Of a DNA stretch of 64,000 bases, positions 23,664-35,008 are shown piece after piece. Location of the stretch: contig NZ_MWQY01000013.1 in assembly GCF_002087085.1 (NCBI RefSeq), positions 1 to 64,000 on the forward strand, in the 5' to 3' direction. Under the pieces are notes generated by a model that worked only from the letters and a program-made list of their open reading frames with translations, made no database searches and was not told where the DNA came from. Numbering within the stretch: the stretch's first letter is position 1; each line of letters starts with the position of its first letter. The position numbers and the translations under genes are program-made.

Positions 23664-24911
23664 CTAGGGGGAAGTCGCAAGACGCGGATAGATCCTGTCG
23701 ATCCACGGCTGGGATTCGGCGTAATAATCCTCTTCAGCCGTCAGGAACTGATAAAGGGCCTCCCGATAATTACCGGTAAAGTAGTATGCCTGTCCCAAGT
23801 AAAAACGGGCTGCATGATCCACTGAATCTTCCCGTCTGATGGAAAGGAATTCCTCCAGGGCCGCCGCCGTTTCCTCGTATTCTCCTTTGGAAAAACGTTC
23901 CCTCAGAATGAGCGAGAGGGTATAGGCCGCACCGCTGAAATCACCGTGAAGGTGGGACGGGAGAATTTCCGCTTCGGCGGGCTTCTCGTGCTTCTCGGGA
24001 ATATCGGCAAGCAGCTGGTCCACAACGGCCGCGGCTGCCGCTCCCATGGGACGCGGGGCCGGACTTATCTGGTTCAGGGAAGGAGCGAGCTGGTCTCCTG
24101 AGACTACGCTGCGCTGGAGCATCAGCCTGGGAAGGGGCGGGGAGCGGAGGCTTATACTTGGAGCAGCCAGGCCTGTGCGCCGGGCTTCCTCTCCTATTTT
24201 AACCGGCTGCACGCTGATATTCTGACCGGGATTGAAAACAAAGGTACCGGTCTGGATCAGCTTGGTATCGAAAATGCCGTAATAGTAGGGGATCCCCGGA
24301 ATGGGATAATCGGTAAATGTGGTCTGATCGCTTTCGATCATGCCGATGCTGCTGGCACCCAGCAGCCCGTCCACGTCGGCGATGGGGTCGGTATGCCGGT
24401 AGATTGTCAGGCTCCGGTCTTTCCTGTCTGCCTGGAAGCGAAGCTGAATTCCCTCTCCCCGGACTTCCGCTTTCAGCCCGGTGACCGAGGCGGCAAGCTC
24501 TTTTTCGGAGACCACCGGGAGAGCCGATACGGGGTATACCGTCTTGTTTCGAAAGGGAATAAAGAGTTCGAAGAGTCCTCCGTCGGGATCCTCCAGGAGA
24601 ACGGCATAATAATATTCCTGCCTGTCTCCGGGATAATCGACAAAGGTGGAAATCCCGGGAGGAACGGCAGCTATCTCCTTCGCATCGCTGAAATTCCCTT
24701 CCTCTATCTCGGTGCTGTGGCGGAAAATATGATAGGTTCCCAGAACGTCCGGGGAATCCCTCCAGGTAAGGCGGATTCCTTCGCCTGCTTCCACGGCCCG
24801 CAGGCTGGATGGAAAAGGGGAGAAGATGGTTCCGGACTGTGAGTACAGCGGAAGGCTGTACAGGAAGAGACCCATAACTGCAATTGTCAGGGGAAATCGA
24901 AAACCTTTCAT
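23664..24911 (-). CDS. exported protein with two FN3-like repeats and a C-terminal TPR
   Basis: Signal peptide; internal duplication GEGIRL...IFRH...TFVDYP...YYY versus GEGIQL...IYRH...TFTDYP...YYY; ARFYLGQAYY. Confidence 0.7.
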   Translation of the reverse strand: MKGFRFPLTIAVMGLFLYSLPLYSQSGTIFSPFPSSLRAVEAGEGIRLTWRDSPDVLGTYHIFRHSTEIEEGNFSDAKEIAAVPPGISTFVDYPGDRQEYYYAVLLEDPDGGLFELFIPFRNKTVYPVSALPVVSEKELAASVTGLKAEVRGEGIQLRFQADRKDRSLTIYRHTDPIADVDGLLGASSIGMIESDQTTFTDYPIPGIPYYYGIFDTKLIQTGTFVFNPGQNISVQPVKIGEEARRTGLAAPSISLRSPPLPRLMLQRSVVSGDQLAPSLNQISPAPRPMGAAAAAVVDQLLADIPEKHEKPAEAEILPSHLHGDFSGAAYTLSLILRERFSKGEYEETAAALEEFLSIRREDSVDHAARFYLGQAYYFTGNYREALYQFLTAEEDYYAESQPWIDRIYPRLATSP

Positions 24912-24992
24912 ATGCCTACCAGTATTATCGGAAAACGCTGGTATAATCCATAGTCCTTTCCCTCTTCTGTAGGTCCATCAGTGTATATCTGC

Positions 24993-25022
24993 TTGCCCAG
25001 AAAGGCTTTTTCCCTGTACACT
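24993..25022 (+). promoter_or_regulatory. sigma70-like promoter, probably leaderless, for the cas2-like gene
   Basis: TTGCCC-N18-TACACT, 7 nt before the ATG at 25030; no SD. Confidence 0.5.
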
Positions 25023-25029
25023 GACTTCA

Positions 25030-25299
25030 ATGTTTGTTGCCGTTGCCTGTGATTTTGCCAATGACGATCATTCCCGGGAGGTAATCAAGCTGCTTGGCTG
25101 GTACGGATTCGAAAAGGTCCAGGAAGGAGTGTGGGAGACCGCCTCGATTCCGGAGAACACCCTGGCTCGTTTAAAACGCGATATCGATCGCAACTGCGAT
25201 TCCTTCGATTCCATCCGGTTTTACCAGTTCCCCATGGAAGAGACCATGGTCATTACCTCGTTAAAGGGAAAACGCTGGCGGCGTATTATTCTTGAATAG
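25030..25299 (+). CDS. stand-alone Cas2-like protein
   Basis: 89 aa. Beta1 ends in Asp (MFVAVACD); LL..YG..VQ..VWE matches Cas2 L..YG.RVQ.SVFE; DSIRFY matches DSxRxY. Confidence 0.75.
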   Translation: MFVAVACDFANDDHSREVIKLLGWYGFEKVQEGVWETASIPENTLARLKRDIDRNCDSFDSIRFYQFPMEETMVITSLKGKRWRRIILE

Positions 25300-25323
25300 C
25301 TGATTGAAAAGGAGAACATGAAC

Positions 25324-26431
25324 ATGCTGAGTGAACTTGACGATGCAATACAGTCCCTGAACACCGAAATCCTCGAAATCTGGAGGGGTCTTTGACCCGG
25401 AACGGATAGAACACCAGATTCGTGAAAAAGAGGCGGTGACGGCGGAACCGGATTTCTGGAACGACCGTGAGGGAGCGGAAAAGCTCATGTCGGAGATTAC
25501 CGCACTGAAACGCTCCTACGAGCCCTGGAAGGATCTCAAAGGGAAGATCGAAGATCTTTCGGAGCTGTACAGCCTGGCTCTCGAGGAGGGAGATGACTCT
25601 GTCGAAACTGAGCTGAAGTCGGGGATCGATGAACTCGGCGCCGAGCTTCAACAGCTGCGGCTGATGGACATGCTCTCCGACGAGTTCGACCGTAATCCGG
25701 TCTTCCTGACCATCCACTCCGGGGCCGGCGGAACCGAAGCCTGCGACTGGGTCAGTATGCTGTACCGGATGTACAGCCGCTGGATAGAACGGCGGGGGTT
25801 CAAGTCGGAGATTCTGGATCTGCAGGAGGCCGAGGGGGGCATAAAATCGGTAACCCTTCAGGTAAAGGGAGATTATGCCCACGGCTATCTCAAATGTGAA
25901 ACCGGCATTCACCGGCTGGTACGGATCTCACCTTTCGACTCCTCGAGCCGAAGGCATACCTCCTTTGCTTCGGTCTATGTCTCTCCGGTTATCGAGGATG
26001 ATATCGAGGTTGATATCAGGCCCGAAGACCTGAGGGTCGATACCTATCGTGCCCAGGGGGCCGGAGGTCAGCACGTAAACAAGACGGATTCAGCAGTGCG
26101 AATGACCCACCTGGCTACCGGAATTGTCGTGCAGTGTCAGAACGAACGGAGCCAGCACAAAAACCGGGACATGGCCATGAAGATGCTGAAATCCCGGTTG
26201 TACGAATACTACAAGGCTGAGAAAGAGGCGGAAAAGGAGAAGAGTGCCCAGGAAAAAAAGGATATCTCCTGGGGTAACCAGATCCGGTCCTATGTTTTTC
26301 ATCCCTACAACATGGTCAAGGACCACAGAACGAAGCACGAAACAGGGAATGTCCAGGCTGTCATGGACGGAGATCTGGATCCCTTCATCGAAAGTTATCT
26401 CAATTTTATGTGGAAACAGAAGAAGGAATGA
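25324..26431 (+). CDS. prfB: peptide chain release factor 2, decoded by programmed +1 frameshift
   Basis: A 23-codon ORF ends CTT TGA C and the +1 frame continues into the RF2 body with GAGGTEA, SPF and GGQ. Confidence 0.97.
25382..25396 (+). promoter_or_regulatory. prfB frameshift cassette
   Basis: Internal SD GGAGGGG, then CTT TGA C at 25390-25396. Confidence 0.95.
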
Positions 26432-26790
26432 ACGGGGTCCTCATCGTCGACGATCTGGAGTTTATGCGAACCGCGCTGCGGGAGATACTCGATAAAGCAG
26501 GAATTCCTGTTGTCGGCGAGGCCTGTAACGGCATCCAGGGGGTGGAGTTCTACTCCCGGCTGAATCCCGAGGTTGTCCTTCTTGATATAACCATGCCGGA
26601 GATGGACGGTCTCGCTGCCCTCAGGAGAATCCGAAAGGATGACCCTTCCGCCCGGATTATCATGTGCTCAGCCCTGGGGCAGGAGTCCACTATTCTCAAG
26701 GCTATCCGCTACGGGGCCAGGGATTTTGTTGTCAAACCCTTCAAGCCTGAACGGATCGTCTCCGCCGTCAAAAAGGCACTGCCCGGATAA
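26428..26790 (+). CDS. single-domain response regulator, CheY-like
   Basis: LIVDD..FMR, LDITMPEMDG, MCSALGQ and KPF. Confidence 0.88.
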   Translation: MNGVLIVDDLEFMRTALREILDKAGIPVVGEACNGIQGVEFYSRLNPEVVLLDITMPEMDGLAALRRIRKDDPSARIIMCSALGQESTILKAIRYGARDFVVKPFKPERIVSAVKKALPG

Positions 26791-26792
26791 AA

Positions 26793-28160
26793 ATGAAACG
26801 AGGAGCACTGTCCGGAGGGATTTTCCCGGTACTGCTTAATCTCCTGCTCCTGATTCCGCAGTATGCAGGTGCTGCCGAGGATCCCCGGGAGGAGTACAGG
26901 ATCGCCCTTACCGGTTTTACCGCCCTCGGTCTGCCCCGGGAACATGCGTATCTGGCCCAGGCCCTTCCGCGCCTTATGCTGCATACCCTTGCGGGACTGG
27001 ATTCCCGCTATATCAGCGATAAGGAGAAGTCTGCTTATATCTGGAGAATCGAGAGGGAAGTCCGGCGGGAAGCTGCGCTCAAGTCGGCGAAAGCCAGAGA
27101 GGAGAACTCCTTCGACGCGATAAAAAGCGGGAGTCTTGAGAGCCGGCTCAATGACGAGACTGCCGAAACCGAGGAGGAACTCCTTCCTGCGGAAATTCAG
27201 GACTATAAACGGATAGAACTCTTCAATGGTCCGGGAGAGATTCCGGATCTTCCGGTTGATCCTGCGCAGTACTGCAGGAAGAATAACCTGGACATGCTGA
27301 TATCCGGCCGGATAGAATCGATCGGCGAGCTGGTTTACTTTTCCCTGGAGGCCTACACCTTTGCAGAGGCCCGCTGGGATGAGTTCTTCTTTTCCGCTTC
27401 CGGATTCACCACCCTGGAGGATGCCCTTCTTCAGGCCCGGGGAGCCCTCAGAGAAAAGGTCCTGGGAAGACCCTGGAGTTCCCTCTCTATTATCACCCGG
27501 CGGGATGCCTGGATCTATCTGGACGGGGAACTCCGAGGTGTCGGGGGGCTGAATAATCTGATTCTCTCTCCGGGCGGGCACAGGATCCGAATCGAGGCGG
27601 AGGCTGCTGAAACCCTGGAAGAATCAGTATTCCTTAAAGCCGGGGAAGAACAGCGTCTTGAGTTCAGCCTGACCGAATCCCCGGTGCCGGAGGTGGAAAT
27701 CGTCAGTGATCCTGAGGGCGCTGAAGTATATCTTTCCTCCCTGTGGGCAGGAACGACCCCTCTGCTTCTTCCGGATACCGGGCGCAGCGGAACCCTCAGA
27801 CTTGTGCTGGAGGGCTACAGGGATGTTCTTGTTCCCGCAGCGGAGCTTGAAACCGGGAAAAACAGTTTTATCCTGGAGCGGCAGCTCTACGATCCTGACC
27901 TTCGGCTCAGGGCAAAGCGGGACCGTCTGTATACGGCGGTGGGGCTTTTTACCCTTTCTCTGCCGGTGACCATGTTCAGCTATTCCCTGTACCGGGATTA
28001 CTGGAACCAGGCGGCCCTGTACAATGACAGCGGTTTTTCCGACCGTTCCTTTTTGTACAACGGCGCTTTTTATGGTAGTCTTTTCGGGTCTTCCATGCTG
28101 TTTGTACATATGGTACGGTCCCTTATCGATTACCGGGTTGCCGGCGCGGAGACATTTTAA
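26793..28160 (+). CDS. PEGA-domain exported/membrane protein
   Basis: Signal peptide, AWIYLDG...PGGHRIRI, SDPEGAEVYL....GTTP and C-terminal hydrophobic segments. Confidence 0.8.
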   Translation: MKRGALSGGIFPVLLNLLLLIPQYAGAAEDPREEYRIALTGFTALGLPREHAYLAQALPRLMLHTLAGLDSRYISDKEKSAYIWRIEREVRREAALKSAKAREENSFDAIKSGSLESRLNDETAETEEELLPAEIQDYKRIELFNGPGEIPDLPVDPAQYCRKNNLDMLISGRIESIGELVYFSLEAYTFAEARWDEFFFSASGFTTLEDALLQARGALREKVLGRPWSSLSIITRRDAWIYLDGELRGVGGLNNLILSPGGHRIRIEAEAAETLEESVFLKAGEEQRLEFSLTESPVPEVEIVSDPEGAEVYLSSLWAGTTPLLLPDTGRSGTLRLVLEGYRDVLVPAAELETGKNSFILERQLYDPDLRLRAKRDRLYTAVGLFTLSLPVTMFSYSLYRDYWNQAALYNDSGFSDRSFLYNGAFYGSLFGSSMLFVHMVRSLIDYRVAGAETF

Positions 28161-28187: not shown

Positions 28188-29048
28188 ATGCGGGGAATAG
28201 GCGCAAGGCTCAAGAGTATTTTTTCCGGGAACCGGATAGACGACGAGACCTTTGAGGATATAGAGGACCTGCTGGTGGAAGCCGATATCGGCGCCGCTGC
28301 GGCCATGGAGACGGTGGATCAGCTGAGGAAGGAACGGGGAGTAAAAAGCCGGGAGGAACTTGTTCTCATTCTGCGGAACAGACTGAAGGCCTATCTCCTG
28401 GAGGGAGAACTTGCCCTGGAGCCGGATAAACTCAATGTCGTGCTGGTTCTTGGTGTAAACGGTGTGGGAAAAACCACCAGTATCGCCAAGATGGCCTCCC
28501 TGCTGCACAAAGAGCAGGGGATTGAACCGATGCTGGCGGCGGGAGATACCTTCCGTGCTGCTGCCATTGACCAGCTGATGCTTCATGGTGAGCGTCTCGG
28601 CTTCAAGGTTGTACACCAGCACCCGGGAGCGGATCCCGGCGCAGTGGTCTGGGATGCCATTGAGAGCGCCCAGGCAAAAGGCTGCTCCCTGGTTCTGGCG
28701 GACACCGCCGGACGAATGCACAACAAGCAGAACCTGGTAAACGAGCTGAAAAAGATCGACGGAATAGTGCAGAAACGTAAGGTCAACGGGGCCTATCGAA
28801 AGGTGCTGGTTATTGACGCTACAACCGGACAGAACGGTCTCAGACAGGCGGAGATTTTCCACGAAGCCGTCGGACTTGACGGGGTTATCCTGACCAAGTT
28901 CGACTCCGCTGCCAAGGGGGGAATAATCCTTTCGGTCTGCCGGAACCTGAAGATACCCTTTCTGTACCTCTGCGACGGCGAGTCCTATGACAGTATCCGA
29001 CCCTTCCGGACAGATGAATTCCTGGATGCCCTTCTGGCGGAGAATTGA
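28188..29048 (+). CDS. ftsY: signal recognition particle receptor FtsY
   Basis: GVNGVGKTT, DTFRAAA, DTAGR, DATTGQN and TKFD..AKGG. Confidence 0.95.
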   Translation: MRGIGARLKSIFSGNRIDDETFEDIEDLLVEADIGAAAAMETVDQLRKERGVKSREELVLILRNRLKAYLLEGELALEPDKLNVVLVLGVNGVGKTTSIAKMASLLHKEQGIEPMLAAGDTFRAAAIDQLMLHGERLGFKVVHQHPGADPGAVVWDAIESAQAKGCSLVLADTAGRMHNKQNLVNELKKIDGIVQKRKVNGAYRKVLVIDATTGQNGLRQAEIFHEAVGLDGVILTKFDSAAKGGIILSVCRNLKIPFLYLCDGESYDSIRPFRTDEFLDALLAEN

Positions 29049-33446: not shown

Positions 33447-33947
33447 ATGAAATGCGAACTGTGCAATGAAAATGACGCTGTTATCCATATTCAGCAGATT
33501 GTCGGCAATGAAGCCAAAGAGATACACCTGTGTGAGAAATGCGCTCACGAGAACGGTATCTCCTCCAACAGCGACAAGATAGAACTGTCCCTGAACGAGC
33601 TTCTCAACGGACTGATTGACTTCTCCTCCCGGCCCAGACGACAGGACACCTGTCCGACCTGCGGGGGACGACTGAAGGATTTCAGGAAAAGCGGTATGGT
33701 CGGCTGTGCCGACTGTTATACCACCTTTCGGGACGAGATCGTCAGTTATCTGGAGGAGTCCGTGGGGACCGTCAAACACGCCGGAAAATACCCGAAAAAA
33801 CTGCAGGCCTACAAGACCCTTCTGGTGGACAAAGAGATCCTGAAAAAACGGCTGGAAGAGGCCGTGGCCGGTGAGGATTACGAAACCGCGGCAGGCATCC
33901 GGGATCGCATACAATCCATCGAGGCTGCGGAAGGAGGGGAGGGGTGA
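33447..33947 (+). CDS. mcsA: McsA zinc/UVR-domain protein
   Basis: Four CxxC motifs and the UVR motif EDYETAAGIRDRI. Confidence 0.92.
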   Translation: MKCELCNENDAVIHIQQIVGNEAKEIHLCEKCAHENGISSNSDKIELSLNELLNGLIDFSSRPRRQDTCPTCGGRLKDFRKSGMVGCADCYTTFRDEIVSYLEESVGTVKHAGKYPKKLQAYKTLLVDKEILKKRLEEAVAGEDYETAAGIRDRIQSIEAAEGGEG

Positions 33948-35008
33948 TTTCCTTTGAGAGCACCGTCGACTCTCCGGGCTGGTATTCCCAGTCGGGTCCG
34001 GAAAACGATGTGGTGGTATCCACCCGTTTGCGCCTCTCCCGGAATCTTTCGGGATACCAGTTTGCTTCGAATCTGGACGCCCGGGAGGGCGAGGCGGTAC
34101 AGACGGGTATACGGAATGCCTTCTCCGGTATGGGCAAGGAGTACCACTACTGCCCCATGTCGGATCTTGCCCCGGTTGAGCGTCGAATGCTTCTGGAGCG
34201 GAACCTGATTTCCCAGGATTTCAGCCTGCAGACTGCGAAAGCGGCGGTTCTCCGGGAGGATTTCAGGTTCTGCGCCATGGTTAATGAGATCGACCATCTG
34301 CGGATGGGGCTGATTTATGCAGGATCCTCATTTTCCGAACTCTGGAAGGAGCTGAACAGCATCGACAGCCGGCTTGAGGACTCCCTGGATTACGCGGTTT
34401 CCCTGGAGTGGGGCTATCTTACCGCTGATGTGAGCAACGTCGGAACCGGACTGAAAGCCTCGGCCATGGTGCATCTGCCGGCCCTGGTGGAGACCGGAAT
34501 GATAGACAAGGCCCTCAAGGCTGTCGTGCAGCTGGGATACTCGGTAAAAGGCTTCTTTTCCGATACGGAGAACAGCCTCGGATATCTGTATCAGATTGCG
34601 AATCCTGTATCCACCGGGGAAAGCGAAGAGGATTTACTGGGAAAACTTGATGGTGTGGTCAATCAATTGGTACATTATGAGAGGACGGCACGGGAAGAAG
34701 TTCTCAAAAAGGAACGTCTGGCCACGGAAGACAAGATTTTCCGGGCCCTGGGAACACTTCTTCATTGCCGGATTATTGAATCCAAGGAGGCTATCGATGC
34801 CCTGAACCTTGTACGGTTCGGCATCGAATGCGGTATGATTTCTTTACCAATACCTGCGGTAACGTCGCTACTTTTTCTCAGCCAGAAGTCTCATGTACAG
34901 GGGCTGATGGAGAGGGAGAAAATACAGGATACACCCGTGGACGCCTATCGCGCCAGAATGATACGGGAAACACTCAGCAGTAAAATGGCAGGAGGATGGA
35001 ATGTTTAA
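33944..35008 (+). CDS. mcsB: McsB-like ATP:guanido phosphotransferase
   Basis: VVSTRLRLSRNL, MVNEIDHLR and GYLT....NVGTGLKAS.M.HLPAL; lies between mcsA and clpC. Confidence 0.87.
   Translation: MISFESTVDSPGWYSQSGPENDVVVSTRLRLSRNLSGYQFASNLDAREGEAVQTGIRNAFSGMGKEYHYCPMSDLAPVERRMLLERNLISQDFSLQTAKAAVLREDFRFCAMVNEIDHLRMGLIYAGSSFSELWKELNSIDSRLEDSLDYAVSLEWGYLTADVSNVGTGLKASAMVHLPALVETGMIDKALKAVVQLGYSVKGFFSDTENSLGYLYQIANPVSTGESEEDLLGKLDGVVNQLVHYERTAREEVLKKERLATEDKIFRALGTLLHCRIIESKEAIDALNLVRFGIECGMISLPIPAVTSLLFLSQKSHVQGLMEREKIQDTPVDAYRARMIRETLSSKMAGGWNV

Follow-up and report, generated by a model that had tools for sequence, protein, structure and literature searches.

A gene of 89 codons at positions 25030–25299 (+) of a 64,000-nucleotide (nt) stretch of DNA encodes a Cas2-fold protein that is independent of CRISPR systems (named for short palindromic repeats that are clustered and regularly interspaced). 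The stretch, here called the window, is positions 1 to 64,000 of the forward strand of contig NZ_MWQY01000013.1 (assembly GCF_002087085.1). The gene runs from an ATG to a TAG and is followed on the same strand by prfB, the gene for release factor 2 (RF2). The safest statement is that it is a Cas2 paralogue out of CRISPR, kept as a cellular gene across the phylum Spirochaetota. We favor a fuller explanation, with a probability of roughly 60%: the gene belongs to a non-CRISPR Cas2-fold family, which in the class of the window's genome would form the leaderless head of the prfB operon.

The identity of the protein was established by profile and structure searches. It scored 35.8 bits against Pfam PF09827 (CRISPR_Cas2; cut-off 23.8), with residues 1–69 aligned to positions 1–68 of the profile. 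Against the NCBIfam model TIGR01573 (cas2) it scored 25.3 bits, a narrow margin over the cut-off of 24.5. On generic Cas2 models it reached 35–36 bits, and no subtype model fitted well. About half of its relatives lacked a precomputed Pfam hit.

An AlphaFold2 (AF2) model, based on an alignment of 20 relatives, had a mean pLDDT (predicted local distance difference test) of 93. The order of elements was strand, helix, two strands, helix and strand, followed by a C-terminal hairpin. When the PDB was searched with Foldseek, all matches above rank 39 were Cas2 or a Cas2 domain, the best being 4qr0, 1zpw, 5h1o and 4es2 (template modeling [TM] scores 0.66–0.74, identity 25–33%); VapD entered the list at rank 40. 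A Foldseek-independent search of 48,161 chains gave Cas2 at all of ranks 1–13 (Z 8.6–11.1); behind these came the PaaX central domain (Z 7.5) and two VapD chains (Z 6.9 and 6.7). The ranking of Cas2 above PaaX and VapD makes the fold call sound, and the product is a true Cas2-fold protein, as the earlier note, made from the sequence alone, had read it.

The same genome contains a regular CRISPR adaptation module elsewhere. The assembly consists of 79 contigs (4.2 Mb), and its sole cas1 (355 bits) lies on another contig, C11. There the locus (L002 1–3234, corresponding to G000:C11:40180–43413) contained a Cas4-like open reading frame (ORF), identified from reading its translation alone, a cas1 of 343 amino acids (aa) and a cas2 of 96 aa. 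An array followed, in which the 32-nt repeat GTCGCGCCCCTCGCGGGCGCGTGGATTGAAAC occurred at least 19 times, with spacers of 34–35 nt; it extended to the end of the locus sequence. The canonical Cas2 encoded there (Pfam 97 bits; PADLOC Cas2c 148 bits) is of the subtype I-C type.

No ORF on the window's contig other than the 89-aa one matched the Pfam Cas2 profile. In the window, a scan for cas1 and for arrays found neither, other cas families being outside the scan; the only repeat was a single one of two copies. The earlier note had called the gene an orphan. This was correct for the window, with its lack of cas1 and array, and incorrect for the genome, which has cas4-cas1-cas2 and the 19-repeat array on C11.

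Comparison with the C11 Cas2 by profile alignment showed what was common and what was lost. In common were Asp8, a YG, the Q..E of strands 2 and 3 and the D..D..R.Y of strand 4. The aspartate that the earlier note had seen in the first beta strand was confirmed: Asp8 ends the sequence MFVAVACD, lies in strand E2–8 of the model, and falls opposite the YDV Asp of the canonical protein in the alignment. On the other hand, a 5-residue gap was found in the window protein opposite the arginine-rich QGGQRRLRK of the first helix. Canonical Cas2 has basic residues here that make contact with prespacer DNA.

The residues kept in the window protein are Asp8, Gly26, Glu36, Lys49, Asp57, Asp60, Arg63, Tyr65, Gln66 and Pro68, with a C-terminal K81-x-W83-R-R motif. 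Among 112 distinct family proteins, 91 had D at position 8, 20 had E and one had S, and E36, K49, D53, Q66, P68 and W83 were invariant. In a phylum-wide set of 22 sequences, all had M1, F2, G26, E36, K49, D57, D60, R63, Y65, Q66, P68 and W83. The Q-x-P and K-x-W-(R/K)-(R/K) motifs were peculiar to this family.

Some members (Breznakiellaceae and Treponema-like) were observed to carry C-terminal extensions, with lengths of 107–137 aa versus about 90. Examples are at L090 3001–3414, L117 3001–3378, L053 1501–1854 (oriented) and L066 3001–3324.

The distribution of the family showed its independence from CRISPR. A search with the window protein found exactly one copy in each of 24 out of 40 related genomes. 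When the window's own genome was counted, 25 of 41 carried the family, and cas1 was found in nine of these carriers and not in the other 16. Those without cas1 included genomes that were 97–99% complete in 2–80 contigs, such as G004 (98% complete), G005 (97%, 4 contigs), G038 (99%) and G040 (98%, 2 contigs). Five of the 41 genomes showed the reverse pattern, with cas1 present and the family absent. Pfam Cas2 scores in the 41 genomes also differed by location, being 52–97 bits beside cas1 versus 25–42 bits, or sub-threshold, beside prfB. A cas1 gene adjoined a family member at none of 129 loci from the window's class and none of 14 outgroup loci from other classes.

Wider searches stayed within the spirochaetes. 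A profile search of 400 further genomes across the phylum gave a match in 58; three large families in this sample had none (0 of 75, 0 of 38 and 0 of 17), and three weaker matches were ordinary Cas2 genes adjoining cas1. A profile search of 5.8 billion proteins returned 318 clusters at E ≤ 1e-8. Among the best 120 clusters the organism names given were all spirochaete, and the annotations among the clusters listed were 'CRISPR-associated protein Cas2' or 'hypothetical protein'. The best 80 genome loci had spirochaete titles except for one 'uncultured bacterium' and one metagenome-assembled genome (MAG) labeled Borreliella. The ESM Atlas returned solely clusters of the same family. The closest named relatives of the window protein were from Marispirochaeta (82–87% identity). 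The family is therefore single-copy and found so far only in Spirochaetota. A literature search, which covered journals other than subscription ones, found no paper describing the family or a linkage of Cas2 to prfB.

A maximum-likelihood tree (98 columns) was built from 15 canonical spirochaete Cas2 proteins and 38 of the 112 distinct proteins of the family, chosen by taking each third one and adding the window's. The family lay together on one side of a single branch, which had a length of 1.09 and an SH-aLRT (Shimodaira–Hasegawa-like approximate likelihood ratio test) support of 87. A single origin of the family is likely from this tree, in which the alignment is short and long branches meet.

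Selection on the gene is strong and purifying. The ratio of nonsynonymous to synonymous substitution rates (dN/dS) was 0.008–0.048 in seven of 15 within-genus pairs, those with unsaturated dS; the eight saturated pairs were left out of this range. For prfB it was 0.017–0.038 in four well-aligned within-genus pairs, the remaining pairs being saturated or spoiled by crude end-trimming (artefacts with dN > 3) and ignored. With the 16 of 25 carriers lacking a detectable cas1 and the separate group in the tree, these values support the proposal in the earlier note of a domesticated, non-CRISPR Cas2. The family is thus independent of CRISPR and not a stray remnant of it.

In the window's class the gene was linked to prfB at every locus examined. 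All 20 loci of the first search, all 30 of the phylum search and, overall, 129 of 129 had prfB immediately downstream in the same orientation. The 129 include the window's own locus and some genomes seen via two collections, and correspond to the 112 distinct proteins; the count leaves out the flanks of 115 further relatives and 12 same-class matches. The CTTTGA frameshift site of prfB was present throughout the linked loci. The gap between the two genes was mostly 0–60 nt, with a few of 100–385 nt. A Cas2-fold match was obtained, no family member was found beside cas1, and the linkage extended well beyond this strain, so the reading in the earlier note passed the checks that could have undone it.

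Upstream of the pair, the usual neighbor in the class was a divergent gene of about 405–475 aa without a family assignment. Other upstream genes encoded a GH57 enzyme, an Hpt protein, a methyltransferase, acetate kinase and a restriction subunit.

Pairwise distances of the Cas2-like protein and of RF2 were correlated over 106 loci (Spearman 0.61), and none of 200 permutations gave a value as high. RF2 distances averaged 0.36, those of the Cas2-like protein 0.52. This correlation fits joint vertical descent, with the qualification that adjacent genes would share a history anyway.

A putative promoter precedes the pair. In the window, a sigma-70 promoter was predicted at 24993–25022 (+), with a −35 TTGCCC (24993–24998), an 18-nt spacer and a −10 TACACT (25017–25022). 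A distance of 7 nt separates the −10 from the ATG at 25030, and there is no Shine-Dalgarno (SD) sequence. The related loci were screened with a strict test: at least five of six matches to TTGACA, a spacer of 17 or 18 nt, and a TAnnnT ending 5–11 nt before the ATG. This geometry was found in 101 of the 112 distinct loci, and at eight of 3336 random ATGs of the same loci as control. The 101 loci had exact TTGACA in 93 cases and spacers of 17 nt (90) or 18 nt (11), and the −10 hexamer most frequently ended 6 nt before the ATG. An SD-like motif preceded the Cas2-like start in two of 112 loci versus 102 of 112 for the prfB start.

Of the other 11 loci, five (the window included) matched TTGACA at four of six positions and six did not. 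In the window and its genus the −35 is weaker, TTGCCC or TTGCTC, and these loci are among the 11. The apparently leaderless promoter that the earlier note described is therefore not peculiar to this strain.

With 6–7 nt between the −10 and the ATG, transcription should start at or beside the A. From this standard promoter geometry, the mRNA of the Cas2-like gene is probably leaderless.

Exceptions to this pattern, with a GTG start, were observed at L104 (a Sediminispirochaeta sp. MAG), where GGGAG lies 8 nt upstream of the GTG, and at L018/L025 (G038). The leaderless arrangement has thus been replaced at least once within the class.

Between the Cas2-like gene and prfB, a generic terminator scan found no terminator-like site. 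Its one weak stem (25272–25284) lies inside the 3′ end of the ORF, and shuffled sequences gave more. In public metatranscriptomes, contigs were found for parts of prfB and the upstream gene, with none on the Cas2-like ORF.

The downstream gene has the usual signals of prfB. Its frame-0 part, 25324–25395 (+), ends at an in-frame TGA (25393–25395), and an alternative ATG is present at 25318, from which the frame-0 translation reads MNMLSELDDAIQSLNTEILEIWRGL up to the stop. The SD sequence AAGGAG (25309–25314, +) lies 9 nt before the ATG at 25324. An internal SD-like GGAGGGG (25382–25388, +) precedes the slippery CTT TGA C (25390–25396, +), whose context related loci have kept. Once the programmed +1 frameshift has occurred, the +1 frame (25394–26431, +) encodes RF2 with its SPF and GGQ motifs, and scored 510 bits against TIGR00020 (prfB; cut-off 370). 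The distance from the stop of the Cas2-like gene is 24 nt to the ATG at 25324 and 18 nt to that at 25318. The closest relatives possess only the start at 24 nt, and with AAGGAG upstream of it, the 24-nt spacing given in the earlier note is the fitting one.

These results are best explained as follows. The ORF is a working gene for a diverged Cas2-fold protein, of a family that has left CRISPR and descends vertically, with strong purifying selection acting on it. Within the window's class the gene would be the first cistron of the prfB operon, with the sigma-70 promoter starting the RNA at or beside the A of the ATG to give a leaderless mRNA. The prfB cistron would be translated from its own SD sequence, with the usual +1 frameshift control kept. 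A leaderless promoter ahead of the pair would tie the production of the Cas2-like protein to RF2 transcription.

The protein itself has kept the strand-1 acid, Q..E and D..D..R.Y and lost the arginine-rich first helix. Its gains are a Q-x-P that never varies and a hairpin of basic and aromatic residues, K-x-W-(R/K)-(R/K). This hairpin and the acidic site that was kept suggested binding or cleavage of nucleic acid, and the loss of the arginine helix disfavored a role in prespacer binding. As a best guess, it would be a metal-dependent nuclease or nucleic acid-binding protein, small and probably a dimer, that acts on RNA and not on prespacer DNA.

Several observations weigh against parts of this explanation. 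The outgroup consisted of 14 family members from other classes with 27–42% identity, with about 1.9 kb of flanks where the contig allowed, and all 14 keep all the hallmark residues. In the stretches fetched, neither prfB nor cas1 was found with any of them (for L177 the stretch downstream was 148 nt). In all 14, a GGAG-type SD sequence lies 6–10 nt ahead of the start codon, and a leaderless promoter is absent. Their neighbors vary, and include divergent TPR proteins (four), GGDEF proteins (two), OmpA-like proteins (two) and an M3 peptidase. Within the class, four genomes (G011, G016, G012 and G017) have prfB without the Cas2-like gene. In G006 (81% complete) prfB itself was not found, which makes this genome uninformative on gene loss.

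The window's promoter is also weak, matching eight of 12 consensus positions, and was missed by a generic promoter scan. Taken alone it would be no more than chance, its support being comparative. As for the 16 carriers without cas1, one Pfam model was used in the search for cas1 and some of these genomes are incomplete (81–94%). Furthermore, the kept strand-1 acid does not by itself prove catalysis. Finally, prfB might simply depend on the promoter in front of the Cas2-like gene, in which case the adjacency would mean no more than that.

The outgroup members without prfB mean that the function needs no adjacent prfB and that the link to RF2 is class-specific, and the four same-class genomes mean that the gene is dispensable in some lineages. 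The lack of prfB and the normal SD sequences in the outgroup weakened the role in RNA or translation quality control proposed in the earlier note. A link of the protein to translation is doubtful. In its boldest form, this would be a Cas2 descendant recruited to core gene expression, a small nuclease or RNA-binding factor produced along with RF2 from a leaderless mRNA. It would act on ribosome-bound RNA in termination or in the rescue of stalled ribosomes, where the mRNA might, for example, be cut or held so that RF2 can act. This form is unlikely.

The main rival is that the protein works outside translation, for example in the metabolism of DNA or RNA or in some task specific to spirochaete cells, and that its place before prfB reflects a shared promoter alone: the genes would be inseparable without silencing the essential prfB. 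The behavior of the other classes, where the gene has its own SD sequence, varied neighbors and no prfB, is what this would predict, and so are the position of the class's only consensus promoter, upstream of the Cas2-like gene, and the class lineages that lost this gene and retained prfB. Against it, the pair was kept in all 129 loci while the outer genes vary on both sides, and a linkage held over RF2 distances averaging 0.36 is often functional, although this does not specify the role. We regard this rival as a serious, though not the favored, possibility.

Two others concern the Cas2 fold itself. The protein might be an extra Cas2 for adaptation, acting in trans with the C11 Cas1 or with incoming CRISPR systems, since the genome holds cas4-cas1-cas2 and an array, and the protein passes Cas2 models. 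This is very unlikely in view of the 16 of 25 carriers without a detectable cas1, the place of the family apart from canonical Cas2, the absence of cas1 beside all 129 and 14 loci, and the missing arginine-rich first helix; the C11 locus, moreover, already owns a Cas2c. It might otherwise be a VapD-type toxin or addiction element beside an essential gene. Cas2 and VapD have a common fold, VapD chains match at Z 6.7–6.9, and Cas2 homologs without antitoxins have been described on mobile elements by Makarova et al. (2012; PMC3506569). On the other hand, the neighbors are the 415-aa divergent gene and prfB, with no small partner gene, and the flanks sampled contained no mobile-element genes. The family is single-copy, under strong purifying selection and co-divergent with RF2, and Cas2 structures match clearly better than VapD. 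An element of this type is extremely improbable here.

Compared with canonical Cas2 (the subtype I-C protein of C11, TT1823 [1zpw] and the S. pyogenes protein [4qr0]), the family has the same fold, the same element order and a similar length, and the strand-1 acid, G, Q..E and D..D(S).R.Y motifs are common to both. It differs in that it never adjoins cas1 or an array and occurs in cas1-less genomes, in its scores (25–42 versus 52–97 bits), in the absence of the basic first helix, in the invariant Q66-x-P68 and K81-x-W83, and in its vertical inheritance with prfB.

The nearest precedent is BPSL1038 of Burkholderia pseudomallei, summarized in PMC10491678 as a Cas2/VapD-like nuclease from a genome without CRISPR. 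There, too, the Cas2 fold is conserved outside CRISPR and the Cas2-equivalent Asp is kept. BPSL1038 belongs to another lineage, and the D11(X20)SST motif given for it in that summary is absent from the window protein. Its abstract describes no linkage to prfB or leaderless arrangement (PMC10491678). In the window protein, residues 29–31, which lie 20 after D8, are KVQ, and the family consensus is K-V/I-Q.

VapD (H. influenzae 6zi0/6zi1; C. jejuni 9kan) is likewise small, with the ferredoxin-like Cas2/VapD fold and possible RNase chemistry. It differs by its weaker match (Z 6.7–6.9 versus 8.6–11.1), and the family has no antitoxin neighbor and no mobile DNA in the flanks sampled. The central domain of E. 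coli PaaX (8a39) is a Cas2-like ferredoxin domain that matched at Z 7.5 over 66 residues. It is an internal domain of a 305-residue repressor, whereas the Cas2-like protein is a free 89-aa protein with no PaaX Pfam hit.

The purpose of the conserved nuclease-like site of Cas2 has long been unclear, since Cas2 serves as a scaffold in spacer uptake. The present family is a natural experiment in this respect, with the fold and the acidic site kept over a very long period, selection as tight as that on RF2, and often no CRISPR. An activity of this protein could show what the Cas2/VapD fold does alone, and would add a clear case of a defense-system protein turned cellular. The pair also offers a case, conserved and open to test, in which a probably leaderless bicistronic operon encodes an essential translation factor. 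If the bold reading on ribosome-bound RNA were true, this would be the first member of a Cas family known to do housekeeping work in translation. On the practical side, the label 'CRISPR-associated protein Cas2' given by annotation and CRISPR-finding tools is misleading for this family in spirochaete genomes.

The divergent neighbor upstream in the window (23664–24911, −; 415 aa) is of the kind usual beside the Cas2-like gene in the class. It had no Pfam or NCBIfam match, and was 32% identical (E 5e-59) to its counterpart in Breznakiella homolactica. It was observed to have a hydrophobic N-terminus and a TPR-like C-terminal end. Its similarity to the TPR proteins divergent at four of the 14 outgroup loci was at the TPR level alone (BLASTP E 0.03), which does not show homology. 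An Rfam search of 24000–27000 gave no match at E ≤ 1.

Downstream of prfB, the same strand carries genes for a CheY-type receiver, a PEGA-domain protein, an FtsY-like signal recognition particle (SRP) GTPase and LolC/D/E-like ATP-binding cassette (ABC) proteins, in agreement with the co-directional run through ftsY and lolCDE of the earlier note. The receiver gene (26410–26790, +) starts 22 nt inside the end of prfB and is followed by the PEGA gene (26793–28160, +; 455 aa), and both recur in related loci. The receiver and PEGA pair, or the PEGA protein alone, was observed after prfB in many of these. This recurrence suggested that the conserved block may exceed two genes.

The FtsY-like protein (28188–29048, +) has just 286 aa, with an SRP54_N and a GTPase domain and without the long acidic N-terminal domain. 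Past the Lol-like genes, two ORFs at 33447–35008 (+) resemble McsA and McsB by translation alone. The McsA-like ORF has a Cys-rich N-terminus and a UVR-like end, and the McsB-like ORF has the look of a protein arginine kinase.

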